DNA of 64,000 bases from an uncultured Gemmatimonadales bacterium (lineage in GTDB: Bacteria > Gemmatimonadota > Gemmatimonadetes > Longimicrobiales > RSA9): contig CAVUKA010000005.1 of the NCBI GenBank assembly GCA_963741945.1, positions 288,001 through 352,000 of the forward strand, given 5' to 3'. The translations under genes were made by a program, and so were the position numbers. Positions 28,209-62,720 of this stretch are shown here, in pieces. The notes below the pieces were generated by a model. The model worked only from the letters and a program-made list of their open reading frames with translations. It was not told the DNA's origin and did no database searches. Within the stretch, counting starts at the first letter, position 1. The number at the start of each line of letters is the position of its first letter.

Positions 28209-28883
28209 TCAGTCTTCCCGGCGGCGACGACGGTACCCCACCACTCCGAGCCCCAGCAGCCCCGTTCCCATCAGCAGCAGCGTGGCGGGCTCGGGCACCA
28301 CGTTCGGATCCTGACAGTCGGCCAGGCTGGTGTAGCCATCCGGCAGCAGGATGGAGCCATCGGACGTGAGCTTCACCGAGCAGCGACCATAGCTCTGGAT
28401 GTGCACACGGCCTTCCGTCAGCTGCTGCAGTTCTGCCAGCGTCAGGTCGCTCGCGAACGTGAAGCTCACGGAACCCCCCGGCGCCAGTCCGTCATTCACA
28501 CCATTGGTCGTGCACGCCCCCGCCAGCGGCTTGCTCGAGACACCGCCACCGGAGAGGTCATTGCAGTTCCCGTCACCCGGATCAAGAGCCCACCCACTCA
28601 GGACGGGCCCGTTGAACGAGAGGCCGGAAAAATCGTCGGCGTACTGGCTCGCGCCGATCAGCCCCGCCGCTGTGATCACACCCGGGTCCAACGCCGTCCC
28701 GGTGGTATACGTGACCGTGAACTTGAAGAGGTCACCATCCTGTTCAAGATTGAACCCGATGCACGTGTCCAACGAACCCCCGCCGCATACGGGATTGGCC
28801 ATCCATTCAGCCGACAGACCCGCGGGGGCCAGCAAGGCCACGCCCACCAGCATGGACCATGGGGAGAGATTTCGAAGTTTCAT
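28209..28883 (-). CDS. PEP-CTERM protein 1
   Basis: Signal peptide; C-term VPEPATLLLMGTGLLGLGVVGYRRRRRED; six Cys in the mature part; ATGA overlap with the upstream 4-TM gene. Confidence 0.93.
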   Translation of the reverse strand: MKLRNLSPWSMLVGVALLAPAGLSAEWMANPVCGGGSLDTCIGFNLEQDGDLFKFTVTYTTGTALDPGVITAAGLIGASQYADDFSGLSFNGPVLSGWALDPGDGNCNDLSGGGVSSKPLAGACTTNGVNDGLAPGGSVSFTFASDLTLAELQQLTEGRVHIQSYGRCSVKLTSDGSILLPDGYTSLADCQDPNVVPEPATLLLMGTGLLGLGVVGYRRRRRED

Positions 28884-29323
28884 GGGCCCTTCCTCGGAAA
28901 TAGGGTGCGGATCAATACGATCCCGGAAACCAGATAGCCGAGGCCGAAGCCGACGGCCATCACGGACGTCCGGATGATGGCGCGGACCAGAAGTGTGCCC
29001 TGCGGTCCGTTCGCGGAACGCAGCGCCAGCGGCACGTTGAGCAGGAACAGCACGTAGGCCGCCGCGACCAGGAGCGCTGCGGCCAGGAGCGTGATGCCCA
29101 CCACGCTGCGCCCGGCGCGACCGCCGCGCGCCAGCGCCCACGCCAGCAGTGCCGCAAACCCGATCGTGGGAAGCGGCAGGCTGCTCACCATGGACGCCAC
29201 GGTCCCGAACTCCCACTCCGGGGAGCCGAACGCGGGGGGGTAGGCGTACAGCGCCACGTCCACCACGCCCACCACCGCCAGCAGGAGGCCGAGCCCGGGG
29301 AGCACGCGCCACGCCGCGTCCAT
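28880..29323 (-). CDS. Uncharacterised 4-TM membrane protein (paralog A)
   Basis: Four hydrophobic segments; D..YPPAFGSPEWEFG, LFLLNV; similar to 30322 and 61441. Start uncertain (GTG 29356 possible). Confidence 0.75.
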   Translation of the reverse strand: MDAAWRVLPGLGLLLAVVGVVDVALYAYPPAFGSPEWEFGTVASMVSSLPLPTIGFAALLAWALARGGRAGRSVVGITLLAAALLVAAAYVLFLLNVPLALRSANGPQGTLLVRAIIRTSVMAVGFGLGYLVSGIVLIRTLFPRKGP

Positions 29324-29689
29324 GGACGGGCGCAGCGGAGCCGGCCCTTCGCTCACCAGCCGTGCGGCTAGCAGCGGAGCTTCCGGATCGCGTCTCTGCT
29401 CTCGTGCCACGGTCCCCTGCAGTTCTGGCATGTTCTGAACACGGTGAATGGCGGGACCCCGCTCAACGGGGGTCCGTCGTAAGCGTGCAGTCGTCGCACC
29501 TTTCACGCCATCGATGCGCTCGAGCCGTCAAACGTCAAGCCACGTTGTGCCACAACCGATTGCGGACTGATCGAACGCGTCGGGCAGGCCATCGCCAGGA
29601 GATTTGTGATGCATCAGACCAACACCATCGGTGTACCCGTGCACCACCCGGCCCCTGGCCACGGTCTCCGGCCCCACGCCATCCGCCCC

Positions 29690-30295
29690 TCATTGGGAGG
29701 CCAGCAGAGCCCGGTCCAGCTCCCGGACACACCGCTCGATCCGGGCGTAGACCTCATCGAACACACCCGACTCCGCGCCCCACGGATCGCGGATGCCTCG
29801 ACGCCGGATCGCTGTCGGATCCAGGTCCCCGAGCACGAGGATGAAGGCCGGGGGCTGCCGCATGAGCTGCCGAGCGTGCCGTCGTTGCCGGACGTCCATG
29901 ACCACGACGAGCGGCGCAGCCACGGTGGGCCCCTGGTCGAGCAGCCGGGACCGGTGTCCCGAGAGGTCGACGCCCAGCCGCGCGGCCGCGGCGCGGGCTT
30001 CGGGAGGCGAGGGTCGCCCGGGGCCGATGAATCCAGCCGAAGCCACCTCGACGAGCTGACCGCGCATCGCCATTTCACGGCGGAGCACGGCCTCGGCGAA
30101 CGGGCTCCGGCAGATGTTGCCGTGACAGAGGAAGACGACGGAGGTGTCCGGCGGCAGGGCGCGGAGGTGGCGGAGGGCCGCATTTCGCCGCAGCGGATGG
30201 AGCGCGGCATCGAGGCGGTCCAGGAAGGTGCGGGCCGCGCGTCGCAGCGCGCGCACCGGCCGAGCCCCGCGATCTCCCTCGCTCTGATCTCCCAT
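29690..30295 (-). CDS. Low-molecular-weight protein-tyrosine phosphatase (Wzb-like)
   Basis: VFLCHGNICRSPFAE P-loop, VASAG, HRSR, VVMD, IRDPWG. Confidence 0.93.
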   Translation of the reverse strand: MGDQSEGDRGARPVRALRRAARTFLDRLDAALHPLRRNAALRHLRALPPDTSVVFLCHGNICRSPFAEAVLRREMAMRGQLVEVASAGFIGPGRPSPPEARAAAARLGVDLSGHRSRLLDQGPTVAAPLVVVMDVRQRRHARQLMRQPPAFILVLGDLDPTAIRRRGIRDPWGAESGVFDEVYARIERCVRELDRALLASQ

Positions 30296-30321
30296 GCGCG
30301 CGGTCGGGCTGCTCCGCCGTC

Positions 30322-30858
30322 TCAGCGACTCGCGGACGACGTTCCGGGGGGGTTACCCCCGAGTACCAGACCGGCGCCGCCTTCCTCCTTCGACCGGCGG
30401 GTCTGCCGGATCGAGCGCCAGAGCGCCGCGGCCAGAAGGAGCAGGATGGCCCCTGTGACCAGCACGATCGCCAGCGACCGGGCCGAGTTCATCTCGTAGA
30501 GCTGCTGCAGCTCCGGCTTCACGCCGCGCCGGACCTGCAACGCGTCCAGCATGAAGAGCGGCCCCACGATGACAAGGGCCAGCCCCGCAACTCCGCTCAC
30601 CACGGAATAGAACCGGCGCCAGCCTGGCCGATCGTGCAGCGCGGCAAGCGCAGCCCCCAGGAAAATTCCCAGCAGCGGGATGGCCGTGCCATCCGCCATC
30701 AACCCCAGCAGGCGCGTCCTTCGGAACGCCCCTTCCGTCCCCGGCACCAGCTGCGTCAGCACCAGCCCCGACAGCGGGAACAGGATCAGCGCCCAGGCCA
30801 CGAGCTGTCCGGGCCAGAACAGGGATCGCAGCGGCGTCGCGTTTCTCAGGTGTGCCAT
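30322..30858 (-). CDS. Uncharacterised 4-TM membrane protein (paralog B)
   Basis: LILFPL, LLGLM..PLLG, VVSGVAG, LFMLDALQVR; four hydrophobic segments. Confidence 0.78.
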   Translation of the reverse strand: MAHLRNATPLRSLFWPGQLVAWALILFPLSGLVLTQLVPGTEGAFRRTRLLGLMADGTAIPLLGIFLGAALAALHDRPGWRRFYSVVSGVAGLALVIVGPLFMLDALQVRRGVKPELQQLYEMNSARSLAIVLVTGAILLLLAAALWRSIRQTRRSKEEGGAGLVLGGNPPGTSSASR

Positions 30859-30977
30859 GCTGAACTCTTCGAGGCAGGATGAGGTGCGCCGGATCGCTCC
30901 ATCACGCGGCGGCGCCGCTCCCCGGCCGGGAAGCGGCGCCGCAGTCCGCACGCGATCACGAACGGTCCGTCAGCTCG

Positions 30978-31529
30978 TCAGACGCTGTCCTTGCGACGAC
31001 GTCGGGCCAGGCCGAACACGCCCAAGAGACCGGTGCCGAGCAGGAGAAGCGTGGCCGGCTCCGGCACCGTAGTCGGGGGTGGCGAGCCGCCCTCCCGCAT
31101 CTTGATCTCCAGGTTGCACCCCTGCCCCGTCGTGCACACCTCGTCCGTCACGGCCGTGGCCCCGATGTAGTAGGTCGTGCTCGCCGCCAGGTCGGGTGAA
31201 CCGAACCACTGGTTCGAATTCGGATCCGGGACGAAATAGTTGTAGTGGTACGCGTACGTTGCCGGGGTCGATTCCGGGTCGAAGTTGGTCGGATCCGTGA
31301 AGATCCACACGTCGAACTGGCCGGTCGCGGTCCCGGCCGCGTAGAGATCGTAGATGCCGGCCGGATCCACCGTGAACTGGTACAGGTAGTCGCTGTAGAC
31401 GGTGGGGCCGTTGCCCACGGTGGTGCAGCCCGGGCACTGGAAATGGAAGTTCTGCGCCTCCACGGCCGTGGGTGGCAGCAGTGCGAGCGCGGCCACCGCG
31501 CCCACGATCATGGCAATTCTCTTCTTCAT
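30978..31529 (-). CDS. PEP-CTERM protein 2
   Basis: AGGAGG RBS, signal peptide MKKRIAMIVGAVAALALLPPTAVEA; C-term VPEPATLLLLGTGLLGVFGLARRRRKDSV. Confidence 0.93.
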   Translation of the reverse strand: MKKRIAMIVGAVAALALLPPTAVEAQNFHFQCPGCTTVGNGPTVYSDYLYQFTVDPAGIYDLYAAGTATGQFDVWIFTDPTNFDPESTPATYAYHYNYFVPDPNSNQWFGSPDLAASTTYYIGATAVTDEVCTTGQGCNLEIKMREGGSPPPTTVPEPATLLLLGTGLLGVFGLARRRRKDSV

Positions 31530-31992
31530 GCGGCCCTCCTGGGGGGAACAACGGGTGATCGCGTACATCGCCACGGAAACGCCCGGTCCCGTTCATCAGG
31601 TGCCGGACTGTCCGTATGCGACGGTATTTCGGAGTCGCAAGATCGGAACCGACCATCGCAATCCGGAACGCGACCACCCGGTAATACCTGCTAACGCAAG
31701 TTATTACAACGATTTAGGGGCCATGACAGCATCCGGATGTCCGACCTCCGCATCCTCCCGATCGGCCCCATGAGTGTGGAGTGGCTACCACAGGTGTCGT
31801 GGACAGCCGCCATGAAGACAGGCCCGGCCCGGCCGCCAGGGCGGCGGTGGTGGCGGACGGCCGCATTTCCCCGTAGCGTGATGGCGGCCCGGGGGTCAAA
31901 CCGCCCTGGCCGCCGTGCTGGTCCGAACCGTGCCGGGACGAAGAATCCGTGAGCGACGATCCCCTGACTCGCCGGTGGAGCGTTCGAAGCTT

Positions 31993-32880
31993 TTGATCCA
32001 TCATCATTTCACGGTCGATGTCGAGGAGTACTTCCAGGTGGTGGCGCTGGCGCCGCACGTGTCCCGCGACGCGTGGCCGACGCTGCCGTCGCGGGTGGAA
32101 GCTTCCGTCGACCTGATCCTCGAGCGGCTGGCCGGGGTCGGCGCCACGGGCACGTTCTTCGTCCTGGGCTGGATCGCCGAGCGGCACCCGGAGCTGGTGC
32201 GCCGGATCGGCGACGCCGGTCACGAGATCGCGTCGCACGGCCAGGCGCACCGGCGCGTCACGGAGTTGACGCCCGCGGAGCTGCGGGAGAGCGTGCGGCG
32301 GAGCCGTGCGGTGCTCGAGGATGCCGCGGGGCGGCCCGTCGTCGGCTACCGGGCCCCGAGCTTCAGCATCACGCCCGGCATGGAATGGGCGCTCGAGATC
32401 CTGCTGGAGGAGGGGTATCGCTACGACTCGTCACTCTTCCCCGTCCGGCGACGCGGCTACGGCTACCCTGGCGGCCGGCGCGAGCCCCACCGGCTCGAGC
32501 TGAGCGCCGGCACGCTGCACGAGGTCCCGCCCACCACGCTCCGGCTGGGCGGCGCTGTGCTGCCGGCCGCCGGCGGCGCGTATTTCCGGCTGCTGCCGTA
32601 CGGCCTGGTGAGCGCCGGTCTGCGTCAGGCGGAGCGGGCGGGCCATCCCGGCACGTTCTACATCCACCCGTGGGAGCTGGACCCCGGTCAGCCCCGGCTC
32701 CCCGTCCCGCCGGCCACACGCGTCCGGCACTACGGCGGTGTGCGAGGAACCGAGCGCAAGCTCCGCAAGCTGCTGCGGGAGTTTCGCTTCCAGTCCATCG
32801 CCACTACACTCGACGCGGGCTCGCCCGGCGCGCGCCCGGCGTCGCCTCGCAACCCCGAACCCCGATGCTCCAGCTCGTGA
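31993..32880 (+). CDS. Polysaccharide deacetylase, PEP-CTERM/XrtA-associated type (with DUF3473-like C-term)
   Basis: FTVDVEEYFQV, TFFVLGWIAER, HEIASHG, GYRAPSFSI, YDSSLFP, AGGAYFRLLP, FYIHPWELDPGQPR; TTG start inferred. Confidence 0.92.
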   Translation: MIHHHFTVDVEEYFQVVALAPHVSRDAWPTLPSRVEASVDLILERLAGVGATGTFFVLGWIAERHPELVRRIGDAGHEIASHGQAHRRVTELTPAELRESVRRSRAVLEDAAGRPVVGYRAPSFSITPGMEWALEILLEEGYRYDSSLFPVRRRGYGYPGGRREPHRLELSAGTLHEVPPTTLRLGGAVLPAAGGAYFRLLPYGLVSAGLRQAERAGHPGTFYIHPWELDPGQPRLPVPPATRVRHYGGVRGTERKLRKLLREFRFQSIATTLDAGSPGARPASPRNPEPRCSSS

Positions 32881-33917
32881 AGCCCAGCCGCACCCTCTAC
32901 ATCGACACCGCCGGCTACTCCGACGCCCGGCGATGGGACGACTTCGTCCGCTCCCGCCCGGAGTCCACGTTCTGCCAGTTGCACGGCTGGCGCCCCATCG
33001 TCGAGGAGATCCTCGGCCACGAGACCCGCTACCTCATGGCGCGCGCGGGCGACGCCAGCGTCGCCGGCGTCCTCCCGCTCGTGCGGGTCCGGAGCCGCCT
33101 GTTCGGCGACTACCTCATGAGCATGCCCTTCCTCAATTACGGAGGGCCGCTGGGCGACGAGGACGCCGTCGAGCTCCTCGTCCGGCACGCCCGGGACGTG
33201 GCAGAAGCTGCCGACGTGGACCTCCTCGAGCTGCGCGCCCGCTCCCCGCTCCCGGGCGACCTGGACACGTCCGACCGCAAGATCACCGTCCTCCTCGACC
33301 TCCCGTCCGACCCCGAGGAGCTGTGGAAGGCGCTCAGGTCCAAAGTGCGCAGCCAGGTGCGGCGCCCGATGAAGGAAGGCATGGAAGTGCGCACGGACCT
33401 GGACCAGATCCGCCCGTTCTACGACATCTACTGCCGCAACATGCGCGACCTCGGCACGCCCGTGCTGCCGCTGAGCTTCTTCACCCGCGTGCTCCACCTC
33501 TTCGAGGACCACATCACGTTCGCCGCCGTCTACCACGAGGGGAAGGCCGTGGCCGCCGGCGCCGGCATCACGCACGGCAGCGAGTTCGAGATCACCTGGG
33601 CCTCGGCGCTCCGCGAGTACAGCCGCATGGCGCCCAACATGCTCCTGTACTGGAGCCTCATGGAGGAGATGAGCCGGCGAGGGCTGGAGACGTTCAACTT
33701 CGGCCGCTGCACCCCCGGCGGCGGCACCCACCGCTTCAAGAGCCAGTGGGGCGGCCGCGACGTACCGCTGCCATGGGCGCAGTGGTCCCCGGATGGCGTC
33801 GACGCCACCCCGTCGCCCGACTCCCCGAAGTACCGGCTCGCCACGAGCATCTGGCAGAAGCTGCCGCTCGCCGTGACCAACCGGCTCGGGCCCGTGCTGG
33901 CGAGGAGCCTGCCGTAG
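32865..33917 (+). CDS. FemAB-like (GNAT-fold) PEP-CTERM system-associated protein
   Basis: WDDFV, SMPFLNYGG, RNMRDLGTP, APNMLLYW, FNFGR, FKSQWG, WQKLP. Confidence 0.9.
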   Translation: MLQLVKPSRTLYIDTAGYSDARRWDDFVRSRPESTFCQLHGWRPIVEEILGHETRYLMARAGDASVAGVLPLVRVRSRLFGDYLMSMPFLNYGGPLGDEDAVELLVRHARDVAEAADVDLLELRARSPLPGDLDTSDRKITVLLDLPSDPEELWKALRSKVRSQVRRPMKEGMEVRTDLDQIRPFYDIYCRNMRDLGTPVLPLSFFTRVLHLFEDHITFAAVYHEGKAVAAGAGITHGSEFEITWASALREYSRMAPNMLLYWSLMEEMSRRGLETFNFGRCTPGGGTHRFKSQWGGRDVPLPWAQWSPDGVDATPSPDSPKYRLATSIWQKLPLAVTNRLGPVLARSLP

Positions 33918-33924
33918 GCGACGC

Positions 33925-37332: not shown

Positions 37333-37626
37333 CAGGGCGCCCGGCGGAGGATAGGCCTCGACCCCTGCATGACAGTCTTCATACCCTCCCCGCGGTCGCG
37401 GACTTCAGATCGGGAAATCTGCATGATGGCAGCGCAGAATACACAGCTCCAGCCAGCAGAGAGCGCCGTCTGTGAGCTCGCAAGCCGGTGCATCCGACAA
37501 TGATCGCATCATCATATTCGTGGTCGCAGTTCGCTGCCAGCAGCGGCCAAGCGGTGAAGCCTGGACTTCGCCTCGAACTCGCTGCATACGGACCGGAGCC
37601 GTGGGTATCTCACGATCGTGGAAAGA

Positions 37627-37667: not shown

Positions 37668-37704
37668 ACGGCTGGGGCATACGGCTGGAGCAGGTTCGAG
37701 CGTG

Positions 37705-40167
37705 TCACCAACCGGGATCGGCCGTGTAAACCTTGAAGTTGTCCTCGAAGATTTGCGTGGCCTCCTCGAACCCGCTGTTCGCCGCACCCCACAGGTACCC
37801 GGCCTCGAAATACGGCGCGGGCGTGTCTGTCCCGCCCTCCGGGTACAGGTTGAGTCCACTCTGGTCGAAGATGAGGGCGCTTCCTATCCACGCCTGAATG
37901 ACACCCTCACCGGGACCGGACCCCACTTTGACGTGAAGCCGGAATGTGGTGTACTGGCCGCGCAACAGCGCGGTCCCCGAACTCGCGATGCCGGGGCTGA
38001 CGTATGTGGCCGTGCCGCCAACGTTGCTAGTGCCCAGGTTGTACGAGGAGGGCCCGCCGCTGGGGTTTGCCAGGAACCGGAACTTCGAGTCTCCCGTCTC
38101 CATACCAGAGGTGTTGTCCGGACGGAACTCGATAACGAGCTTGGCTCGGTTGTCACCTCCATACTCCCGTCCCCACAGTGCAAAGAACTTGTTGTTGTTG
38201 TGACCGTCGGGCGGTGTGATGTGCCTGTAGTTGGCGCCAATGTAGATGTGGCGTTCGATCCAAAGCTCGGAGTAGTGGCCGCGGAGGTTGAAGTTCGCTT
38301 CGTTGTTGGCATTGCCACCCGGAAGGGTGGAGGCCGGATAGCTCCGATCCAGTGCGTAGCTGCCGGTTTCAGGCTGGACCGTGGAACGATGGTTAGCCAA
38401 GCCGGAAACCCAGGAAAATCCCGAAGGCGCACCGAAATAGTCAGCATTCTCGAAGCCGTCGGTCACTATCAACCCGGTTGGCGCTTGACTCTCGTGAACG
38501 TCGATCGTAGCCGACGCAGACAAACCAGAGAACGAGCCACGTACGATGGCGGACCCCGCCGCCACCCCGCGGACGAGTCCCGCATCCATAATCATGGCCA
38601 CTGCCGGGTTCGAACTGGCCCACGTTGGAGTGGCGGTCATCGTGTTGCCGTTGGCGTCTTGTACGACGGTCGCCAACTGCACCGCCTCCCCCACGGCTAG
38701 AGAGGACACTGTGGGCGATAAAGTGATCGTCGCCGCCACCTGGTGGACCGTGACTGCCACCGTATCCGCGGCCGAGCAGCAAAGCGCTGCCACGACCACG
38801 GACGCGGTCCCGACGCTGCGGGCTGTCAAGAGTCCCATGCTATCCACCGTGACCACTGAGGCGTTCGAGCTCGACCACCCGAAGCTAACCTCACTCACCG
38901 TTCCTCCGGAACCGTCGAGCGCCGTGGCGCTCAGGCGAGCGGTGTCGCCGAGGGCCGTGAATGCGAGCGCGGCCTTGCTGACCTGGACCCGCGCCACGTC
39001 GACAGTCGGTGGGGGCGGTGTCGTCGCCACGACGTTGACACTGGCCTTGCCCGACAGCGTTCCGGCTTTCGCCGTGATCGTGGCGGAGCCCGCGCCCACT
39101 CCCTTCACCTTGCCATCGGAGCCGACCGTTGCCGCCGCTGCGTTGCTCGACGAGAACGTGGCGCCGCCGACCGGGTGCCCCTGATTGTCCTTGACGGACA
39201 GCTGGACGGTCTGACCCACGTCCACGCTGACCTCGCCAGGATCGAGCACGAGGCTGGTGGCCGGGGGCGGTGAAACGGTGATGGCGATCTGATCCGACTT
39301 CCCGCAGCACGGCGCGCTCACGGTGATGGTCGCGCTCCCATCGGCCACGGCCGTGATCCGGCCGTTCTTGTCGACGGTCGCTACGGACGCGTTGGAGCTG
39401 CTCCAGTCGAACGCGATGCCGTGGACCACGTTGCCGCTGGCGTCGAGCGCGTCCGCACTGGCGTCGAGCACGTCGCCGAGGGCCTTGAACTGATAGCTGT
39501 CGACAGAGGCCCGGATCTCCGAAACCTCCGTGTTGGTCTTGCCGCGCACCTTGACGTCCGCCTGCGCCCGCACGGCGCCGACCGATACCTCGACGGCGGT
39601 GGTCCCTTCCCCCTTCGCCGAAACGACGCCATCGTCGCTCACCGCGGCCACCGTTCCGTCCTGGGTCGTGAAGGTGAGGCCCTGGATCGCGTTGCCATTC
39701 GCGTCCTCGGCCCGGGCGTCGATGCGCAGGGTGTCACCCACGTCCATCTCCGCCTGGTCAGGAGTGACGAGGAGAACGGTCGGAACCTGTTCGATCGTGA
39801 CTTCCACCTTCTTCGACACGTCGCAGCAGCGGGCCTTGACCGTGACCTGGGCCTGCCCCGTTGCCCTGGACGTCACCACCCCGGCGCCGCTGACCGCCGC
39901 GATCGCCGGATCGGTGCTCGACCACTGCAGATCGGGCTCGGCAATCGGGTCACCGATCGCGTTCAGGACCGTGGCCGTCAACTGTCTCGAATCGCTGAGC
40001 GCGGTGAAATGCACCGAGCTCGTGTTCACCTGCAGATCAGCCTGGAGCTGAGGCTCGAGAAAGCTGTCACATGCGGTCATTCCCGCGAACGCCAGTACGG
40101 CGCCCAGGAGGCTGATGATCTTATGGAAATGGATCCGGCCGGTCTCGCTCGCCAGGGTCGGCATCAA
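37705..40167 (-). CDS. Lipoprotein with six Big_2-type Ig-like repeats and a C-terminal beta-sandwich domain
   Basis: Lipobox AGMTAC; repeats with WSSS(N/D)..VA.V...G.(V/I).A...G.A.(I/V); C-terminal ~240-aa aromatic-rich domain. Confidence 0.85.
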   Translation of the reverse strand: MMPTLASETGRIHFHKIISLLGAVLAFAGMTACDSFLEPQLQADLQVNTSSVHFTALSDSRQLTATVLNAIGDPIAEPDLQWSSTDPAIAAVSGAGVVTSRATGQAQVTVKARCCDVSKKVEVTIEQVPTVLLVTPDQAEMDVGDTLRIDARAEDANGNAIQGLTFTTQDGTVAAVSDDGVVSAKGEGTTAVEVSVGAVRAQADVKVRGKTNTEVSEIRASVDSYQFKALGDVLDASADALDASGNVVHGIAFDWSSSNASVATVDKNGRITAVADGSATITVSAPCCGKSDQIAITVSPPPATSLVLDPGEVSVDVGQTVQLSVKDNQGHPVGGATFSSSNAAAATVGSDGKVKGVGAGSATITAKAGTLSGKASVNVVATTPPPPTVDVARVQVSKAALAFTALGDTARLSATALDGSGGTVSEVSFGWSSSNASVVTVDSMGLLTARSVGTASVVVAALCCSAADTVAVTVHQVAATITLSPTVSSLAVGEAVQLATVVQDANGNTMTATPTWASSNPAVAMIMDAGLVRGVAAGSAIVRGSFSGLSASATIDVHESQAPTGLIVTDGFENADYFGAPSGFSWVSGLANHRSTVQPETGSYALDRSYPASTLPGGNANNEANFNLRGHYSELWIERHIYIGANYRHITPPDGHNNNKFFALWGREYGGDNRAKLVIEFRPDNTSGMETGDSKFRFLANPSGGPSSYNLGTSNVGGTATYVSPGIASSGTALLRGQYTTFRLHVKVGSGPGEGVIQAWIGSALIFDQSGLNLYPEGGTDTPAPYFEAGYLWGAANSGFEEATQIFEDNFKVYTADPGW

Positions 40168-47222: not shown

Positions 47223-48307
47223 AGGCTTTCGTACGCGTCCAGCATGGACTCCAGCGAGAACCGGTCCCGGACCGTGCGCTGCGCCCGCACGGCCAGCTGC
47301 GCAGCCCACTCCGGATCTTCCGCGCACCGCCGCAGCCCCGCGGCCAGCGACTCGGGGGAGCCGGGAGCGACCAGCACTCCGTCCTGCCCGTCCGTGATGA
47401 TCCCTTCGGGACCGCCCGACCGCGTCGCCACAACGGGGGTTCCGGCCGCCATGGCCTGAATGGCGGCGATGGAGAAGCCCTCCGTGCTCGAGCTGATGGC
47501 GAGGACGTCGAACGCCGCCAGGATCTCGGGAACATCCTCCCGGAAGCCCCAGAACGAAACGCGATCCTCGAGACCGAGCTGGCTGCGGAGAGCCAGCAGC
47601 TCTCCGTACAGCGGCTCCGTCCGCTCTCCCACGATGGCGAAGCGGAGACGCGGGTCGTCGCGGAGGATCGCGGCCGCCCGCAGGAGCGTGGCGTAGTCCT
47701 TCGCCGGACGCACGTTCCCAAGTGCCCCCACCAACACCGCACCTACCGGCACGCCATGCTCGCGCCGCACCACTTCGCCGTCGGCGCTGCCGAACGCGCG
47801 CATGTCCACGCCGTTGTGGATCACGCGCGCCCGATTCGCGGGGACCAGCCCCGTCCGTGCCAGCTCCCGGCCGAGTGATTCGGATACGCAGACCACTCGC
47901 GCCGCCCGCGCCAGGAGCCGGAAGCGGAGCCTGCGACCGAAGCTGCCGGCATCGATGTCGGAATTGCCGTGGAACGTGGCCGCCACGGGCGTCCCCGTCC
48001 AGAGGCCGACAGCGCTGGTGTAGACGGCGGGGCTGAACAGGTGCGCCTGGATCAGGCGGATGTCGTGGCGCCGGACCAAGGCCGCCATGGTACGGGCGTA
48101 CCGCACGTCCAGGCGGCCTTCCGTCGGCAACAGGTCCACGGGGAGATCCAGCTCCCGCACCCGGTCCAGCACCCACCCCCTTCCAACCACCGCCATCCTC
48201 GGCTTCCACCCCCGACCACGCAGCCCATCGGCCAGCTGCAGGAACACGGTCTCCGCACCCCCGGGCCCCGTGGTGTCGATGACGTGGAGAACGGGCGTGT
48301 CCGTCAT
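47144..48307 (-). CDS. Glycosyltransferase family 4
   Basis: LHVIDTTGPGGAE, IHNGVD, PAKDY, SSSTEGFSIAAIQAMAAG, ATRSGG; 79-bp convergent overlap with the sulfotransferase. Confidence 0.9.
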   Translation of the reverse strand: MTDTPVLHVIDTTGPGGAETVFLQLADGLRGRGWKPRMAVVGRGWVLDRVRELDLPVDLLPTEGRLDVRYARTMAALVRRHDIRLIQAHLFSPAVYTSAVGLWTGTPVAATFHGNSDIDAGSFGRRLRFRLLARAARVVCVSESLGRELARTGLVPANRARVIHNGVDMRAFGSADGEVVRREHGVPVGAVLVGALGNVRPAKDYATLLRAAAILRDDPRLRFAIVGERTEPLYGELLALRSQLGLEDRVSFWGFREDVPEILAAFDVLAISSSTEGFSIAAIQAMAAGTPVVATRSGGPEGIITDGQDGVLVAPGSPESLAAGLRRCAEDPEWAAQLAVRAQRTVRDRFSLESMLDAYESLYDELLAPRSSHASSTPGTSAASSST

Positions 48308-49641
48308 CCCGCCGCGGCTCGCCCCAGCACCGGCGCTCCACCGGTCACCATCTGCGGGGCCCCGCCCCGACGCACCGCCGCCAGGTAGCGCCGGCGGTGC
48401 CCACTGACCGCCGCATGCAGCGAAACGGTCATGGCCAGGTTGATCCAGAAGAACGGGTAGTACAGCACGGTGACGAAGAACCCGCTGGCCATGTACCCGA
48501 TGAGCGCACCATCCAGGCCGTACGCCATGTGCCGCATGAAGGACGTGTACGTGGGCACGCTGCCCAATAATCTTCGCGTGTCGAAATTGACCCAGAACGT
48601 GGCGGCGATGAGCGCCAGGAATCCCAGCAGCCCCGTATACCCCAGCTCCGCCCACGCCTGGATGAAGATGTTGTGCGGCAGGTGACCGTCGAAGTACGTC
48701 CCCCAGTTGTTGTAGCCGATCCCCAGGACCGGATACTCGTTGGCGATCTCCACGCCGTCCTTCCACCGGTCCAGCCGCGCCACCGACGTCTTGTCCTCGC
48801 CCGCCGCGTTGAAGCGCGCCTTCTGCTCCGGCGGCACAATGGCCCACGTGACGGCCGCGAGCAGCACGATGGCCGTCAGCCCTCGCACCCGGTGCTTCGA
48901 ACGCGCCACCCACCACATCCCCACCACCCCCGCCCCCACCAGCGCGCCCCTCGATGACGAGGCCACGATGCTGATGATCGCCGTGAACGGGAGGAAATAG
49001 AAGAAGAGCCGCGTCCAGCGCCCCCAGTGCGGCCGCAGGGCCAAGATGAACTCGACCACCAGCGGCAGGAAGACGCACATCTGGATCCCGAACTCCCCCG
49101 AGTTCTGGAACCAACCGGGCGCCCCCGTCGCCCCCCAGCTGACGAAGCTTCCCCCGCTCAGCACCCAGCCCTGGAAGCCGTGCTGCGACATCTTGAAGGA
49201 GTACAACAGGAACGCCAGCATCAACACGAAGAAGCGCTTCTCCGTGTTGATGATGTTCGTGATCAGCAGATAGATCAGCACCCACGAGTAGTACAGTTGG
49301 AACTGGGCGTAAGACGCCGCCGGACTGTACGCGGTGATGGCGGACAGGAGAACGATCACCGAGAACGCCAGGAGCAGCGGCCCCGCGATCGTGTGCAGCC
49401 TGGGCAGCTTGCCTTCGAACAGGAGCACGATGGTGGCCAGGATTAGCGTGGTCTGACCCCACGGCAGGACATCGAGGGCGGGCCAGACCTGCTGCGGCCG
49501 GACGTACTCTATGAAGAGATAGAAGTTGATGAGCCAGAACGATGCCGGCTGCGTCAACAGGTACCGCCAGATGGACCGGACGTTCACGCGGAAGAGCGCG
49601 GGTACCGGCTGCTGCCGCTCTTGAGTCGCTGCGGAGGCCAT
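48304..49641 (-). CDS. O-antigen ligase / Wzy-like polymerase (PEP-CTERM-associated type)
   Basis: Many TM segments; EYVRPQ, SSSRGALV, RLDRW, PVLGIG, PHNIFIQAWAELGYTG. Confidence 0.88.
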   Translation of the reverse strand: MASAATQERQQPVPALFRVNVRSIWRYLLTQPASFWLINFYLFIEYVRPQQVWPALDVLPWGQTTLILATIVLLFEGKLPRLHTIAGPLLLAFSVIVLLSAITAYSPAASYAQFQLYYSWVLIYLLITNIINTEKRFFVLMLAFLLYSFKMSQHGFQGWVLSGGSFVSWGATGAPGWFQNSGEFGIQMCVFLPLVVEFILALRPHWGRWTRLFFYFLPFTAIISIVASSSRGALVGAGVVGMWWVARSKHRVRGLTAIVLLAAVTWAIVPPEQKARFNAAGEDKTSVARLDRWKDGVEIANEYPVLGIGYNNWGTYFDGHLPHNIFIQAWAELGYTGLLGFLALIAATFWVNFDTRRLLGSVPTYTSFMRHMAYGLDGALIGYMASGFFVTVLYYPFFWINLAMTVSLHAAVSGHRRRYLAAVRRGGAPQMVTGGAPVLGRAAAG

Positions 49642-49655: not shown

Positions 49656-51410
49656 TCAGCGGCCGCTCGCCGCTGACACCTCGCTCCCGGAGGCGTCCAC
49701 GGCCGTGATCCGTCCATCCACCAGCTCGATCACCAGGTCCGCCGTCTGCCTCAGCGCCGGCTGGTGCGATACCGCCAGGATCGTGACCTTCCCTTTCAGC
49801 CTGCGCAGTGTCTCCAGGATGCCCGCCTCGGTTCGGGTGTCGAGGCCCGTGGTCGCTTCGTCCAGCACCATCAGCGTGGGGCGCTTCACCAGCGCCCGCG
49901 CGATCGCAAGCCGCTGCCGCTGCCCCCCCGAAAGGTTGGAGCCCTGCGGGGAGATGAGCGCATCGATCCCGGCGGAGTTCCGCGCTACGAAATCCCACGC
50001 TCCCGCGTCGCGCAGCGCCTTCTCGACTCTCGCATCATCGATGGACTCATCCCCGAGGGTGATGTTGCGCCGGATCGTGTCATGGAAGAGGAACACTTCC
50101 TGCGGAACGTAGCCGATGCGGCTGCGCCAGGCGGTCAGATCCAGCTCCCCCAGGGCGATCCCGTCCACGAACACCTCACCGGCCTGCGGGCGCTGGAGCC
50201 CGGTGATCAGGTCCAGGATCGTGGTCTTCCCGCTTCCCGACTGACCGAGCAACGCCGTCATGCGCCCCGCCGGGATCACCATGTCCAGACCGTCCAACAC
50301 CTGAAGGTCATCGTAGGCGAAGTCCACCTGCTTCAGCTCGATCCGGTCCCGCAGACCGTCGATCCCCTTGTCGCCGGTGTGCGCTTCGGCCTCCCGCTCG
50401 GCCGCCTCGATCTGGTCCCGGAGCTGCCAGAACGCCCCCTCCCCGGTGGTCATCACCTGGTACTGCATCTGAAGGGTCCTGAAGTTCGTCATCAGGCGGT
50501 AGAAGATGAACGCCAGCACGATCACCGAGGAGAAGGAGCGGTCGGTCAGCATCAGGAGCCCGACCAGACCGGCCGTGAGGAACAGCGTGATGATCGGCTC
50601 CTGGAACAGGCGCAGCGATTCCGCGGCCACCACCCTCGCGCGCTGCGCCTCGTTCAGGCCCTGCGCCTCATCCTCCAGCAGGGGCCAGAACAGCTCCTCC
50701 CGCGCCATGGCCTTCATGGGCTTGATGCCCTGGAGGGCGTCCATGAGACGGCTCGTCAGGCTCCGCGTCAGCCGCGCCTGCTCCTTCCCCGCCGCCCGGC
50801 TCATGGCCACGAACCGCCGCAGCGCGATCACCAGCGTCACGCCCAGCACCAGCGCCACCACCGTCACCTGCCACGAGATGGCGGCCGAGATCAACAGGTA
50901 CACTGCGATCTGGGCAAACGACGCGATGACCGAGCACGCTTGCTGGTAGGCGGCAGCAGAGGCCACCGCCTCGCTGCTCACCCCAGCCGCGAACCGACCG
51001 ATCGGCTGGCTGCCGAAATAGTGCCAGCGGGCCCGGAGCACGGCGCGCACCAGCCGGAGCCTAAGGTCGAGCGTCACCCGCGCAACCGTGTAGCCCACTT
51101 CCCGCATCCCCAGCCAGATCAACACGGCCTTCAGCGTGATGGCCAGGACGATGAACGCGGCCAGCACCGGAAGGCTCGGCTGGAGCCCCAACGTGTGGAG
51201 ACCTTCCGCCATGAACTGACCAAGCCGCGAGTGCGGCCCCTGGCCGCGCCCGATGGCAACCTCCAGCAGAGGCAGCAACGCTACCACGCTGATCCCCTCT
51301 AGCATTCCCGCCAGGATCAGCAGCGCGATCATCACCGCGCTCCGAAGCTTGTACGCCCGGAAGAAGTAGAAGAAGAAGGACAGCCTTCCGTGGCGAGGCG
51401 TCTCCTCCAT
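49656..51410 (-). CDS. ABC exporter, fused permease-ATPase (MsbA/PglK-like candidate flippase)
   Basis: N-terminal TM domain; GQSGSGKTT, GYVPQE, LSGGQRQR, VLDEAT, VSH. Confidence 0.92.
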   Translation of the reverse strand: MEETPRHGRLSFFFYFFRAYKLRSAVMIALLILAGMLEGISVVALLPLLEVAIGRGQGPHSRLGQFMAEGLHTLGLQPSLPVLAAFIVLAITLKAVLIWLGMREVGYTVARVTLDLRLRLVRAVLRARWHYFGSQPIGRFAAGVSSEAVASAAAYQQACSVIASFAQIAVYLLISAAISWQVTVVALVLGVTLVIALRRFVAMSRAAGKEQARLTRSLTSRLMDALQGIKPMKAMAREELFWPLLEDEAQGLNEAQRARVVAAESLRLFQEPIITLFLTAGLVGLLMLTDRSFSSVIVLAFIFYRLMTNFRTLQMQYQVMTTGEGAFWQLRDQIEAAEREAEAHTGDKGIDGLRDRIELKQVDFAYDDLQVLDGLDMVIPAGRMTALLGQSGSGKTTILDLITGLQRPQAGEVFVDGIALGELDLTAWRSRIGYVPQEVFLFHDTIRRNITLGDESIDDARVEKALRDAGAWDFVARNSAGIDALISPQGSNLSGGQRQRLAIARALVKRPTLMVLDEATTGLDTRTEAGILETLRRLKGKVTILAVSHQPALRQTADLVIELVDGRITAVDASGSEVSAASGR

Positions 51411-52041: not shown

Positions 52042-53106
52042 ATGCTCACAGGTGTCGCGCTGTTTCCAAAGCTAACGATGGGGATGGACTTGGGCGATAG
52101 AGTCAGCCGGATCTGCGGGGTGGATGCCGGAGGGGACGTGGTCCGCGAGGAGTCGGTGGCGACGACGTGGCCGGCGGTGGAGGAGTACTTCGGCGCGCTA
52201 GGGGCATGCCGGGTGGTGATCGAGGTGGGCACGCATTCGCCGTGGGTGTGTTGGCTGCTGGAGCGGTTGGGGCATGAAGTGATCGTGGTGAATGCGGCGC
52301 TGGTGTACGGGAAGGGGCGGCGCAAGAAGCGCAATGACGCCATGGACGCGGAGTTTCTGGCGCGACAGGGGCGAGCGGACCCGAAGCTGCTACACCCGAT
52401 CCGCCACCGAGGGGTGCAGGCCCAGGAGCATCTGGCACTGATTCGGGCCCGGGATCAGCTGGTGTCGGCGCGAACGAAGCTGGTCAATCATGTGCGGGGA
52501 ACGGTGAAGCCGGTAGGGGGGCGCATCCAGGGGTGTTCGGCGGACGCGTTTGCCCGCAAGGCGGACAGCCAGATCCCGAGCGGACTGCGAGCGGCGCTGG
52601 CGCCGGTGCTTGAGATGATCGGAGCCCTGACGGCTCAGATTCGGGGCTACGACCGGGAGATCGAGCGTTTGGCCCGGGAGCGATACCCGGAGACCGCGCG
52701 ACTGCAGCAGGTTACGGGCGTGGGCCCGGTGACCTCGCTGGCCTACGTGCTCGTGGTGGAGGACGCCAACCGCTTCGACCGAAGCCGGGACGCGGGGGCG
52801 TACTTCGGACTGGTGCCGAAGCTGGACGAGAGTAGCGATTCGAGTCCGCAGCTGCGGATCACGAAAGCGGGAGACGAGCTCGGACGAAGACTCCTGGTGA
52901 ATGCGGCTCACTACATCCTGGGTCGCTTCGGACCGGACAGTGACTTACGCGCTCATGGGGAGCGGATCGCCGCCCGGGGAGGAAAGAACGCCAAGAAGCG
53001 AGCGGTGATTGCCGTGGCCAGAAAGCTCGCAGTCCTGCTCCACCACCTCTGGGTCACGGGGGTGAAGTATGACCCGCATTATTCCGCCCGGCGTAAGGCG
53101 GCGTAG
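52042..53106 (+). CDS. IS110-family DEDD transposase/recombinase
   Basis: GMDLG, VVIEVG, KRNDAMDAEFLAR (D-E-D-D); GVGPVT, AYFGLVP..ESS, RITKAG, KRAVIAVARKLAVLL. Confidence 0.95.
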   Translation: MLTGVALFPKLTMGMDLGDRVSRICGVDAGGDVVREESVATTWPAVEEYFGALGACRVVIEVGTHSPWVCWLLERLGHEVIVVNAALVYGKGRRKKRNDAMDAEFLARQGRADPKLLHPIRHRGVQAQEHLALIRARDQLVSARTKLVNHVRGTVKPVGGRIQGCSADAFARKADSQIPSGLRAALAPVLEMIGALTAQIRGYDREIERLARERYPETARLQQVTGVGPVTSLAYVLVVEDANRFDRSRDAGAYFGLVPKLDESSDSSPQLRITKAGDELGRRLLVNAAHYILGRFGPDSDLRAHGERIAARGGKNAKKRAVIAVARKLAVLLHHLWVTGVKYDPHYSARRKAA

Positions 53107-53365: not shown

Positions 53366-53395
53366 GGCCTTCTCATAGAAGGCGCGGAGCGGCCC

Positions 53396-53506: not shown

Positions 53507-53509
53507 CAG

Positions 53510-54370: not shown

Positions 54371-54476
54371 GGCAGAGCGGGTATGAGGTTTGCGCGGCGA
54401 CCCTTTGTCCGCGTATCCGACTGTGTCGGTCCTGGACGGTTCCGAACAGTGTCGCACCCACATCTTCGGAGCTGCA

Positions 54477-55505: not shown

Positions 55506-55777
55506 ATCTCACGGCGTTTCTGATAGATAAATATATCGCCAAACGGCAGTTCGGCACGCCGCCGCGCATTCTGAGCAACCTAACGTCTTATCCGAGCGGA
55601 GCCGCTCTGCAAGGCTTGAGCGAAAGAACCCGAGCGGCACCGGCGGCCGTTGTCGATAGGAGTTTGCCTTGCGGAGAGACTCCGACGCGCAAGGGTGAGC
55701 GCGCTTTGACCGCATTCCGAAAGCTGACGTAGAGCCCGACGGGCTGATAGATGCTTCCCGGGCTCGGGACCGGGACA

Positions 55778-58985: not shown

Positions 58986-58987
58986 CG

Positions 58988-59938
58988 TCAGACGCGCCGC
59001 AGCAGGCGCTGGAGCTGCCAGTCCACGCTGTCGCGCAGGCGGGCCACGCCGTCGTGAACGGCCAGGCGTGCCCGGACCGCCGGTGTGGCGGAACCGGTGG
59101 GCCGGTATCCCAGCTCTTCCATCAGGGGACTCGCGATGGCTTCCACCATGCGGACTTCGCTCCGGCTCAGGTCCTGCGCCCACCCCCCGACTTCGCCCCT
59201 CCGGAAAAAGCCCGAGGGGATCGTCCGTCCTGGCACCGGCAGCCCGCCATCGCCGCCGGCCCCGCGCTTCTGCAGGCGCTGGAGCCGGCACGCTTCCACG
59301 TGGCTTTCAACTTCCGCGGCGGAAGCCTCGAGCCCCAGCCACTCCAGGACCGCCGACAGGGCCTCGCCCGTGTTGCCTGACAGGTCTTCGTAGCGCAACT
59401 CCCGGTAGCGCGCGCCGGTTCCGGCCAGCTCGCGTCCCCGCTCCACGTGCCGCCGCCACACCCTGGCCGCTTCCGCCGCGTGCCCGGGGGCCCAGTTTCG
59501 CCCCCAGCTCCGCCCCGCCGCCACCAGTGACGCGGCCGTGTCCCGCGGGTCGCGGAGCACGTGGAGAAAATACGCCTCGGGGAAGAGCCGGTGTATGAAC
59601 GAAGCGTGCAGCGCGTGCTGCGGGCTCTTCTCCACCACCACCGGCGCCTCGGGGTTCCTCGCCGCGATTCTGCCCAGCACGAACGCGGCGCTGGTCCGGC
59701 ACAGCTGCTCGAACTCCGCTTCGCTCAGGAGCTGGCTCAGCCCACCGCCACCCTGGCGGTTGCGACGAGCTCCGTCCCGCTCCTCCGCCCACTGGCGCCT
59801 GAAACCGCTGAGGTAGAACCCGAAGATCTGCGTCTCGGGCGCGGTCACCACTCCGGCGTGCTGATCCAGCAGCAGCTGGATCCACGTCGTTCCGCTTCGC
59901 GGCGACCCGAAGATGAACAGGACTCTTGCCTCGCCCAC
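58988..59938 (-). CDS. Sulfotransferase
   Basis: FIFGSPRSGTTW, VEKSP, LRDPRDTAAS, LRYEDL, FFRRG.VGGW; AAGGAG before GTG 59938. Confidence 0.92.
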   Translation of the reverse strand: MGEARVLFIFGSPRSGTTWIQLLLDQHAGVVTAPETQIFGFYLSGFRRQWAEERDGARRNRQGGGGLSQLLSEAEFEQLCRTSAAFVLGRIAARNPEAPVVVEKSPQHALHASFIHRLFPEAYFLHVLRDPRDTAASLVAAGRSWGRNWAPGHAAEAARVWRRHVERGRELAGTGARYRELRYEDLSGNTGEALSAVLEWLGLEASAAEVESHVEACRLQRLQKRGAGGDGGLPVPGRTIPSGFFRRGEVGGWAQDLSRSEVRMVEAIASPLMEELGYRPTGSATPAVRARLAVHDGVARLRDSVDWQLQRLLRRV

Positions 59939-60040
59939 GGACTCCTTCCCCCATATCTTGGAACGCTGACCCAAACGGCCGCCTCCGAGCATATGCGGAC
60001 CGCTCACCTCAGAACTACACGCCGGACTACTCCCCGCGCA

Positions 60041-61267: not shown

Positions 61268-61440
61268 GCGAGCCCCACAACGCCGTCCGACACGGCGCGC
61301 CGGCCTCCCGGGTGGCTGGAGCCGGGCCCGTGCTCGAGGCGGGTCAGCAGCCCTTCTTCGGACGCAAGACCGACGGCCACTCCGCTCGAGGAGCGAGGTG
61401 GCCGTCGGTTTCTTTCGGGATTGCGGCAGGGGGCCGGACT

Positions 61441-61941
61441 TCAACCCGAACCACTGCTCACGAGGACGTCGGTCCGATTGCCATCCGCGTCTCTCGCCGC
61501 CGCCACACCGCTGGCGCGCCACCCTGCCCGCGCGAACCAGAACAGGACCATCATCGAGAAGACGTTCTTGAACAGGGCCTTGGCCGTTCCGATGGCGAAC
61601 TGCGTCCGGGCTCCGGCCGGGGCGCCCGCGTGAACCTGGATGGCGTCGAGGCCATAGACTGCCGTGCTCGCAAGGAACACCACGCCCAGCAGTCCGCTGA
61701 GCACCGCCAGTCCGCGAGCCATCCGGTTGTGCCGGGCGAGAATCGCCGTGGCGAGCGCCAGGGCGAGGCCGAGGAGAGCTGTGAGCACGTATCCGGAAAG
61801 CAGTCCATAGCTGCCGTAGCGCCATGTGGGCGCCCCCACCTTCCACGGCCACAGGTTCGTCCCGAGGTCGGCCAGGGGGAAAAAGACGAGGACGCACGCC
61901 ATGGCGTACGCCGTTCCCACAACGCTCGATTGTTTGCTCAT
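61441..61941 (-). CDS. Uncharacterised 4-TM membrane protein (paralog C)
   Basis: LVFFPLADL..LWPWKVGAPTWRYGSYGLLS, LLG, VLSGLLG, YGLDAIQV. Confidence 0.8.
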   Translation of the reverse strand: MSKQSSVVGTAYAMACVLVFFPLADLGTNLWPWKVGAPTWRYGSYGLLSGYVLTALLGLALALATAILARHNRMARGLAVLSGLLGVVFLASTAVYGLDAIQVHAGAPAGARTQFAIGTAKALFKNVFSMMVLFWFARAGWRASGVAAARDADGNRTDVLVSSGSG

Positions 61942-62036
61942 TGCCCTCGTTTCATGCTATAAAGGCGCGCATCGGGAGGCGGAATCGCCTCCCGATGCGG
62001 CACTTCTTCCAATCGCTGCCGAAAGCCGGTCTGGGC

Positions 62037-62720
62037 TCAGGCCTGCATCCGGCGACGACGATACCCGAAACCGATGAGGCCGAGCAAGCCGGTCCCCAGC
62101 AGAAGCCAGGTGGAAGGCTCGGGCACGGGAGAGAGCATCACCATGAACTCCTGGCCGAATTCACCCTGCTCGGGATAGCCGACTCCCGAAAGGATGGCGT
62201 ACCTGTTCGTGTCCACGGAGTCGTAGTTGTTCTGCGCGTTGGTCACCCAGGTGCCGATGTTGGGCGCCGTATACCCGGAGGGGCCGCCATCGCCCAGGAT
62301 CTGCCAGATCGCTCCCTGAATCGACCCGTTCTGGTCGCTGTTCGGATCGCCGTAGGTAAACTGTGAAACCAGCCACGCGGCCTGGAGGTACTTGTCCAGG
62401 GATGCGTTGTAGGTGTAGCCGTACGCGCTGCCGGCGGCCCACAGTGGTGTGATGTAGACGTCCCCGCTCATGGGCTCGTTGACGGGGTCCACGCAGAACA
62501 TGTCGAAGGTGGCCCCGCCGAGCGCCCCATTATACCCATTGTTGATCACATAGCCGCTGTACCACCAGTCGCTGCCCTTGTGCCCCAGGTAGTCCAGATA
62601 CCCGGTCTGGCCGGGCGCCGGTGCCGGAGCCGGCGGTCCATACATGTCGACCTGGGCCGCCGCGCCGACCGGCATTGCGAGCACCAGGAGGACGAACGCC
62701 GCCTTGCGCAATTCTCTCAT
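62037..62720 (-). CDS. PEP-CTERM protein 3 (thioester-domain-like motifs)
   Basis: GGAGG RBS, signal peptide; C-term PVPEPSTWLLLGTGLLGLIGFGYRRRRMQA; FCVD, IQGAIW, GQEFM. Confidence 0.93.
   Translation of the reverse strand: MRELRKAAFVLLVLAMPVGAAAQVDMYGPPAPAPAPGQTGYLDYLGHKGSDWWYSGYVINNGYNGALGGATFDMFCVDPVNEPMSGDVYITPLWAAGSAYGYTYNASLDKYLQAAWLVSQFTYGDPNSDQNGSIQGAIWQILGDGGPSGYTAPNIGTWVTNAQNNYDSVDTNRYAILSGVGYPEQGEFGQEFMVMLSPVPEPSTWLLLGTGLLGLIGFGYRRRRMQA

Follow-up and report, generated by a model that had tools for sequence, protein, structure and literature searches.

Here we describe a stretch of 64,000 nucleotides (the window) from an uncultured Gemmatimonadales bacterium (GenBank assembly GCA_963741945.1, contig CAVUKA010000005.1, here C5, positions 288,001 to 352,000), in which each of three PEP-CTERM genes adjoins a paralog of one family of small proteins with four transmembrane (4-TM) segments. 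Judging by profile comparisons, the 4-TM proteins form a compact branch of the HpsJ family in Gemmatimonadota, homologous to HpsJ though failing the curated cut-offs. The association of these compact HpsJ-like genes with PEP-CTERM/exosortase sorting is real and well supported. The names of NCBIfam models already tie HpsJ-like proteins to cyanoexosortases, and no new system is at hand; what is new is the extension of the HpsJ family beyond cyanobacteria that these comparisons indicate, as a compact Gemmatimonadota variant. Literature searches, with subscription papers outside their reach, gave no paper on a Gemmatimonadota HpsJ branch or on HpsJ-like sorting partners, none joining PEP-CTERM, exosortase and Gemmatimonad, and none on 'HpsJ-like' or 'HpsJ family'.

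In the main text of the cyanoexosortase B (CrtB) paper (PMC12188702) the attachment target of exosortases and the outer-membrane crossing of PEP-CTERM proteins are called open; HpsJ is mentioned there 0 times, the supplements being outside this check. These questions could be approached cheaply and directly through a small membrane protein whose occurrence follows that of exosortases in two distant phyla and of which one phylum keeps only the membrane core. Where a genome combines many PEP-CTERM genes with just one 4-TM gene, one deletion would suffice to probe the role of the latter.

Gene pairs in the window and the exosortase beyond it

The source genome (4.09 Mb, 96.7% complete) carries four PEP-CTERM genes over the TIGR02595 cut-off, three of which lie within the window. 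All six genes of the three pairs are on the minus strand. 4TM-A (28880..29323), a protein of 147 aa from the ATG used here, whose true start may be further upstream, precedes PEP1 (28209..28883; 224 aa, TIGR02595 27.9 bits), and its stop overlaps the PEP1 start by 4 bases (ATGA). PEP2 (30978..31529; 29.4 bits) is upstream of the divergent paralog 4TM-B (30322..30858; 178 aa) with a gap of 119 bp, and PEP3 (62037..62720; 26.4 bits) is upstream of 4TM-C (61441..61941; 166 aa) with a gap of 95 bp. The original prediction, made from the letters of the window, had described three same-strand adjacent pairs, one of them ATGA-coupled, and its coordinates, strands and spacing are correct. All three PEP-CTERM proteins (C-terminal PEP motif, hydrophobic helix and basic tail) exceed the TIGR02595 cut-off of 16 bits.

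The pairs are contained in an XrtA-type exopolysaccharide (EPS)/PEP-CTERM locus of approximately 42 kb, which extends from about 28 kb of the window to about 6 kb past its end. Its over-cut-off markers are TIGR03006, TIGR03019, TIGR02602, TIGR02914 and TIGR03008, and it also encodes many glycosyltransferases, wzc and wza. By permutation, the probability that three of three PEP-CTERM genes touch one of four paralogs in a locus of 34-40 genes is P=0.005-0.008, the 34-gene list being approximate. Over the whole source genome, three of the four PEP-CTERM genes and three of the four 4-TM paralogs are paired. The fourth PEP-CTERM gene is on contig C6 (L003 5238-5798, plus strand), where no 4-TM paralog was found. 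It has an atypical N-terminus, a basic stretch followed by a hydrophobic helix, and by eye it lies after an L,D-transpeptidase-like gene.

An exosortase had been reported as lacking in the window. This is true of the window itself, but the single exosortase of the source genome (xrt) is found only 1.2 kb past its end (match C5:353234-353983), scoring 207 bits with PF09721 and 160 bits with TIGR02602, over cut-off. With the XrtA model it scores 151 bits, under the cut-off of 208, and its Cys/Arg/His triad is invariant in 28 aligned rows. The order of genes is xrt, epsI (C5:352470-353153; TIGR02914 99.9 bits, over cut-off), 4TM-D, a WcaJ-like priming sugar transferase gene (62883..63656, minus strand; PF02397 202 bits), PEP3 and 4TM-C. 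4TM-D, the fourth paralog, is thus directly downstream of xrt-epsI; its 3' end is at 63911..64000 on the minus strand and its start, C5:352460, is outside the window (L002 1912-2460, minus strand). It is frameshifted just before the fourth helix, and the tail matches positions 126-158 of the family hidden Markov model (HMM) in another frame. The frameshift may be a real break or an assembly error; contigs of three DNA sequencing runs do not span the position, and no RNA run is listed as carrying the sequence. In a genome of the same genus (L005) the 4TM-D ortholog is intact and is followed by a PEP-CTERM gene.

Homology to the HpsJ family

Pairwise similarity between the paralogs is low (phmmer E about 1, weak, for A and C; 9e-7 for B and C). 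An independent family HMM, built on 138 homologs none of which comes from the source genome or its genus, recovers all four paralogs in the source genome (E 4e-42 for 4TM-C, 1.5e-24 for 4TM-B, and 2e-36 and 2e-29 for the other two) and nothing else at E<0.05. The three window proteins are thereby confirmed as paralogs, as had been proposed from alignment by eye, despite the weak pairwise scores.

Among all proteins of the genome 4TM-A is the best match to a cyanobacterial HpsJ HMM (E 7e-9), and it matches the NCBIfam models NF050013 (E 2.4e-9) and NF038305 (E 3.4e-9), both below cut-off. 4TM-C matches NF050019 (E 1.8e-6, below cut-off), and no HpsJ model matches 4TM-B. The NF038305 cut-off of 60 bits is reached by none of the paralogs (A 37.0, C 21.7 and D 15.5 bits, B no match), the best score against the NF050013 equivalog cut-off of 140 bits is 37.1 bits, and the best E-value of window proteins with NF050014 (HpsJ) is 0.005. 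NF050013 nevertheless matches 14 of 26 aligned Gemmatimonadota members at E<=0.01 (best E 1.6e-9), and the cyanobacterial HpsJ HMM matches 79 of 144 Gemmatimonadota 4-TM proteins at E<1e-3. Profile-profile alignment by hhalign of 26 Gemmatimonadota with 15 cyanobacterial rows gives a probability of 96.9 and E 1.6e-10 over 100 columns. When run on five cyanobacterial genomes, the 4-TM profile has five matches; all five are HpsJ-family genes and four are within 1.2 kb of an exosortase.

PF28006 (HpsJ, Pfam 38.1) labels 23-24% of the members of two look-alike Atlas clusters; the Pfam copy searched with the window proteins gave no HpsJ row. Pfam searches with 112 members (E<=0.01) revealed no consistent family, the best being Trp_oprn_chp with 6/112, below cut-off where checked. 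A single-sequence protein search returned only two relatives, and the whole family comprises 2196 representatives at E<=0.001, which may include cyanobacterial members. The named homologs and the Atlas clusters belong to Gemmatimonadota, and the Gemmatimonadota homologs are mostly called 'hypothetical protein' or left without a name in the source records. The description of the family as unannotated thus falls in substance, since 4TM-A and 4TM-C match HpsJ models, if below cut-off. As for the suggestion of a possibly undescribed partner of PEP-CTERM sorting, the link to exosortase sorting stands, whereas the family has been described (HpsJ-like, NF050013/NF050019, PF28006); the family matched is itself exosortase-associated and not one of unrelated function.

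The view that the 4-TM proteins are not exosortases was upheld. Exosortases have about eight TM segments and a Cys/Arg/His triad, and the 4-TM proteins have four helices without conserved Cys or His. A split or small exosortase was rejected, as PF09721 finds only the separate xrt gene.

Distribution in Gemmatimonadota and adjacency to PEP-CTERM genes

Distribution was studied in 251 genomes spread evenly over Gemmatimonadota, the source genome included, of which the best 14 candidates per genome were scored for the 4-TM family and the best 32 for PEP-CTERM; many of these genomes are fragmented, and all are kin, so that counts do not represent independent events. The 4-TM family is present in 78 genomes, an exosortase in 70 and a PEP-CTERM match in 78. 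The 4-TM family and exosortase occur together in 64 genomes, 4-TM only in 14, exosortase only in 6 and neither in 167; the corresponding numbers for the 4-TM family and PEP-CTERM matches are 69, 9, 9 and 164. In the wzc-positive subset (130 genomes), used to separate EPS from sorting, the 4-TM family is found in 64/70 genomes with an exosortase vs 9/60 without one. The latter figure becomes 9/59 if G185, which is also a no-match genome in the 251-genome tallies, is left out. Of the 4-TM genomes, 73/78 have wzc.

A 4-TM gene was counted as adjacent if a same-strand PEP-CTERM tail lay at most 400 bp upstream or 1500 bp downstream. By this rule 65 of the 123 distinct 4-TM genes outside the source genome flank a PEP-CTERM gene (57/115 of those with full flanks; 55/123 if an intervening paralog disqualifies), about 0.8 being expected by chance, and xrt/epsI is within 1.5 kb of 21/123. 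Other genes of the same system served as controls in 40 of the 64 genomes with both 4-TM and exosortase. Here 33/61 4-TM genes are adjacent vs 0/27 femAB-like, 0/30 O-antigen-ligase-like (30 of 31 hits) and 0/30 epsI genes (30 of 37 hits), or 0/87 for the pooled controls; the enrichment of homologs next to PEP-CTERM genes that the original prediction called for is therefore present. With a looser rule, any tail within 1.5 kb, the counts are 37/61 for 4-TM genes and 6, 0 and 3 for the femAB-like, O-antigen-ligase-like and epsI controls.

The copy numbers of 4-TM and PEP-CTERM genes are uncorrelated (Spearman -0.03): genome G113 has at least 32 PEP-CTERM matches and one 4-TM gene, G103 has 30 and one, and of the PEP-CTERM matches, at least 403 in number, only 53 adjoin a 4-TM gene. 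A universal one-to-one pairing is for these reasons rejected, and the implied rule of one partner for each PEP-CTERM gene does not extend beyond the window. Among genomes with at most two PEP-CTERM matches, 24/41 have a 4-TM gene next to one of them; among those with at least seven, 7/21 do. The PEP-CTERM genes linked to 4-TM genes seem to encode the core substrates of the locus.

Variant tails with EPPP-like or PVPAPAP-like motifs are found next to 4-TM genes in L098, L109 and L120, the first two belonging to genomes in which an exosortase was not found. Also, two genes recur at distances of up to 2.5 kb from 4-TM genes, one for a conserved lipoprotein (15 genomes) and one for a probable outer-membrane protein (18 genomes); examples are L118 2496-3521 and L105 1-2543. 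Genes at 17399-21930 of the window resemble this pair by appearance.

PEP-CTERM passengers and their clades

The passengers of PEP1, PEP2 and PEP3 do not align mutually (blastp E>=0.9), in line with the original prediction. Since they are unrelated, and since the A and C pairs each have relatives of their own that belong to other families, simple cassette duplication in the source genome was rejected. Among the fetched 4-TM neighbours, three main passenger families, mutually unrelated, can be delineated: F0 (PEP3-like, 23 genomes), F1 (PEP1-like, 18) and F2 (DUF4114, 6), in addition to five small families and singletons. In total at least seven passenger families plus singletons occur as direct 4-TM neighbours. 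PEP1 is a distant F1 member (F1 HMM E 3.8e-7 in a search of three sequences, a weak match), and PEP2 is a singleton with no relative among the fetched neighbours.

On a FastTree phylogeny of 144 4-TM proteins the F0/F1/F2 label changes only two times over the 57 labelled rows (87 being unlabelled), and in 1000 label shuffles the mean is 24.2 changes and the minimum 18. Nine genomes carry two different clade-family pairs, and the orientation of pairs is largely fixed per clade. Because the passenger label changes so rarely on the 4-TM tree, the A-PEP1 and PEP3-C pairs are old, class-wide linkages and no quirk of the source genome. The match between clade and passenger may reflect only three ancient events, and co-evolution is not implied.

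The model of the PEP3 passenger (predicted local distance difference test, pLDDT, 73) has thioester-type adhesin domains as all of its top eight structural matches, from Z 9.7 (root-mean-square deviation 3.8, 138 aligned) to Z 7.4, the next match having Z 2.8. In the F0 family C76 and Q190 are invariant in 22 rows. PEP3 (62037-62720) is thus predicted to combine a PEP-CTERM tail with a thioester domain of the Cys-Gln type. NCBIfam has a name for the tail of PEP3 but none for this passenger, and no paper pairing a thioester domain with PEP-CTERM was found in the same literature searches. F0-like genes number 47 in 37/251 genomes. A 4-TM gene is adjacent to 20/47 of them, and to 1/28 of those not used to build the query. 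The finding points to adhesins with predicted thioester domains on PEP-CTERM tails.

Structure and conserved residues

The four TM segments that had been proposed were seen by hydropathy in 4TM-A, 4TM-B and 4TM-C, and in the AlphaFold2 (AF2) model of 4TM-C as four helices (pLDDT 94). In the alignment, the three helices of cyanobacterial HpsJ are followed by a coiled coil of approximately 100 residues and then by a fourth helix. The Gemmatimonadota form likewise has three N-terminal and one C-terminal membrane helices, helix 4 being aligned in one of 12 printed rows, and a loop or short hairpin of 19-24 residues between helices 3 and 4 in place of the Gln/Glu-rich coiled coil. The most conserved residues (approximate 4TM-C numbering) are Trp42 (95%), Pro34 (90%), Gly60, Arg78, Asp101, Arg/Glu43 and Asp27, mostly located in the loop that joins helices 1 and 2 and in the hairpin between helices 3 and 4. 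In the alignment 4TM-B is without the conserved loop Trp, and neither Cys nor His is among the columns conserved at 45% or more.

Basic residues follow helix 2 and helix 4. By the positive-inside rule basic residues favour the cytoplasmic side of the membrane, and their positions therefore suggest that both termini are cytoplasmic, in which case the conserved loop and hairpin would face the periplasm. A Foldseek search with the 4TM-C model gave no match at E<=0.001, and no relative with a solved structure was found by sequence-profile search. In a VIA fold search with 4TM-C the best match was a designed helical repeat with Z 12.3, a value that plain helical bundles would also be expected to give. 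Co-folding of exosortase, PEP3 and 4TM-C, run without controls, scored 0.01, which speaks neither for nor against a complex.

Proposed role and alternatives

We give about an even chance to the 4-TM protein being a non-catalytic accessory that positions the precursor or the acceptor for the single exosortase. The compact HpsJ-like protein would then be an inner-membrane component of exosortase/EpsI sorting, with Asp27, Pro34, Trp42, Arg/Glu43 and Asp101 forming a periplasm-facing surface at the membrane level predicted for the PEP motif and the exosortase active site. This is proposed because the conserved residues are probably on the periplasmic side and include no Cys or His, and because PMC1569441 puts the PEP motif and the exosortase triad at the same interface. 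The homology to HpsJ, the co-occurrence with exosortase, the linkage to PEP-CTERM and xrt-epsI genes and the single 4-TM copy of some PEP-rich genomes also count in favour of it. Most likely the protein would hold the tail-anchored PEP-CTERM precursor, or its acceptor, at the exosortase/EPS-export site, and the one to four copies of a genome would serve all of its substrates in trans. The gene pairs would be ancient operons that join a paralog to the 'core' PEP-CTERM genes of the EPS locus, retained because the two are expressed together and not because every substrate requires a partner of its own.

Several observations weigh against this accessory role. All support for it is genomic context. 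Of the 4-TM genes, 42/123 have no PEP-CTERM tail or xrt/epsI within 1.5 kb, and several of these sit among housekeeping genes; four of the 42 have variant or gapped tails missed by the tail HMM. Linkage to the enzyme is a minority case, with a 4-TM gene within 1.5 kb at only 6/30 epsI loci. Seven of the 78 4-TM genomes have neither exosortase nor PEP-CTERM match. Variant tails are present in two of the seven, and a third is a weak match; G065 and G242 (98% complete), also among them, keep a tandem 4-TM pair in an EPS setting. In addition, a GT2 glycosyltransferase gene is beside about 19/39 cyanobacterial HpsJ loci (counted by eye, the loci being biased to the best-scoring HpsJ proper), and the tight match of clade to passenger fits dedicated adaptors at least as well.

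Dedicated adaptors would mean that each 4-TM clade is a class-specific chaperone or adaptor presenting its own passenger family to the single exosortase. The rarity of label changes compared with the shuffles, the nine genomes with two clade-family pairs, the largely clade-fixed orientation and the ATGA coupling of 4TM-A and PEP1 all speak for this, but two label changes need as few as three ancient, vertically inherited linkage events, kin sharing their labels. As the 4-TM gene adjoins less than half of the thioester-domain PEP-CTERM genes, hardly any outside the query, and only a small part of all PEP-CTERM matches, and as some 4-TM genes persist without a PEP-CTERM neighbour, we consider such adaptors unlikely. 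Equally doubtful is the bolder proposal that HpsJ-like proteins are a missing specificity subunit of exosortase systems: in Gemmatimonadota one exosortase would draw on a few four-helix adaptors that can replace one another, each inherited together with one class of PEP-CTERM cargo and specific to it. If it were true, one cargo class would be a covalent thioester-domain adhesin, and the adaptor would decide the attachment target of its cargo or the route to the surface.

The 4-TM protein could also act on the glycan side, handling a lipid-linked sugar or EPS chain as a flippase helper or acceptor presenter, and meet PEP-CTERM proteins only via glycosylation or EPS attachment. GtrA with GtrB is a model for such a flippase helper. 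GtrA is not among the Pfam matches of the 112 members at E<=0.01 nor among the fold-search rows, families unlisted there lying outside that check. The GT2 gene beside HpsJ proper, the placement of all 4-TM copies of the source genome within the EPS locus, the presence of wzc in nearly all 4-TM genomes and the naming of hpsJ as an hps locus gene in a table of PMC10581220 are in favour of this role; yet the family is absent from 51/60 wzc-positive genomes without exosortase, and in Gemmatimonadota its neighbours are PEP-CTERM genes far oftener than glycosyltransferases, which makes a glycan-side function improbable in our opinion. Still less credible is plain co-regulation, by which 4-TM genes with an unrelated envelope function would be passengers sharing the promoters of highly expressed PEP-CTERM genes. 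A third of the 4-TM genes without PEP-CTERM or exosortase neighbour and the frameshift in 4TM-D would agree with it, but the exosortase link recurs in a second phylum, the direct neighbours belong to at least seven passenger families plus singletons, and none of the 87 control genes of the same locus is adjacent.

Other features of the locus

A low-molecular-weight tyrosine phosphatase gene (29690-30295; PF01451) follows 4TM-B. The left part of the EPS/PEP-CTERM locus comprises XrtA-system polysaccharide deacetylase and FemAB-like genes (31975..33917, plus strand; TIGR03006 328 bits and TIGR03019 319 bits, over cut-off). A gene of the same locus at 37705-40164 (minus strand) encodes a protein of 819 aa that has six Big_2 Ig-like repeats and whose N-terminus resembles that of a lipoprotein. 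Three sulfotransferase genes (43278-44042, 44283-45167 and 58988-59992) suggest a sulfated polysaccharide, and an O-antigen-ligase-like gene (48304-49641) adjoins a HepA/PglK-like ABC exporter gene (49656-51410). An IS110-family RNA-guided transposase gene (NF033542, over cut-off) lies in the locus at 52078-53106 (plus strand), and between 53106 and 55778 the gene finder called no gene. A promoter scan gave 0 promoter-like sites, and the terminator-like counts of 2 and 3 are close to the shuffle means of 1.3-1.4; these scans weigh neither for nor against co-regulation.

Comparison with known systems

The closest known counterparts are the NCBIfam models 'HpsJ-like protein, cyanoexosortase A-/C-associated' (NF050013 and NF050019). 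The Gemmatimonadota 4-TM proteins are homologous to NF050013 over the first three helices, with common Asp, Pro, Trp and Gly of the helix 1-2 region, and the order exosortase, associated protein, hpsJ-like is the same in the source genome and in cyanobacterial crtA loci; one cyanobacterial copy (L288) has a PEP-CTERM gene just upstream. In contrast, the Gemmatimonadota proteins score far under the cut-off (37 vs 140 bits), have a short hairpin where cyanobacteria have the long coiled coil, occur as 1-4 paralogs mostly flanking substrate genes and not the enzyme, and go with an XrtA/EpsH-type exosortase and true EpsI. In the 39 cyanobacterial loci the PEP-tail HMM found no tail, but it missed one true tail. 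In one cyanobacterial locus (L260, genome G278) an HpsJ-like A gene and a cyanoexosortase A fused to its associated domain come after the gene of a secreted protein whose hydrophobic-basic tail is unclassified.

HpsJ proper (NF050014, NF038305, PF28006; Npun_F0077) belongs to the same family by profile and is likewise linked to a polysaccharide locus, but it adjoins a GT2 gene and its similarity to the window proteins is weaker. With the XrtA/EpsH PEP-CTERM system the source locus shares the markers over cut-off. It differs in that its core PEP-CTERM genes are linked to an hpsJ-like gene, whereas most PEP-CTERM genes are single-gene operons according to PMC1569441. From the TED/TIE adhesins of Gram-positive bacteria PEP3 differs in being a single domain with a PEP-CTERM tail in a diderm host, at 5-12% identity and with a predicted thioester; the passenger model matches their fold, and the Cys and Gln are invariant.

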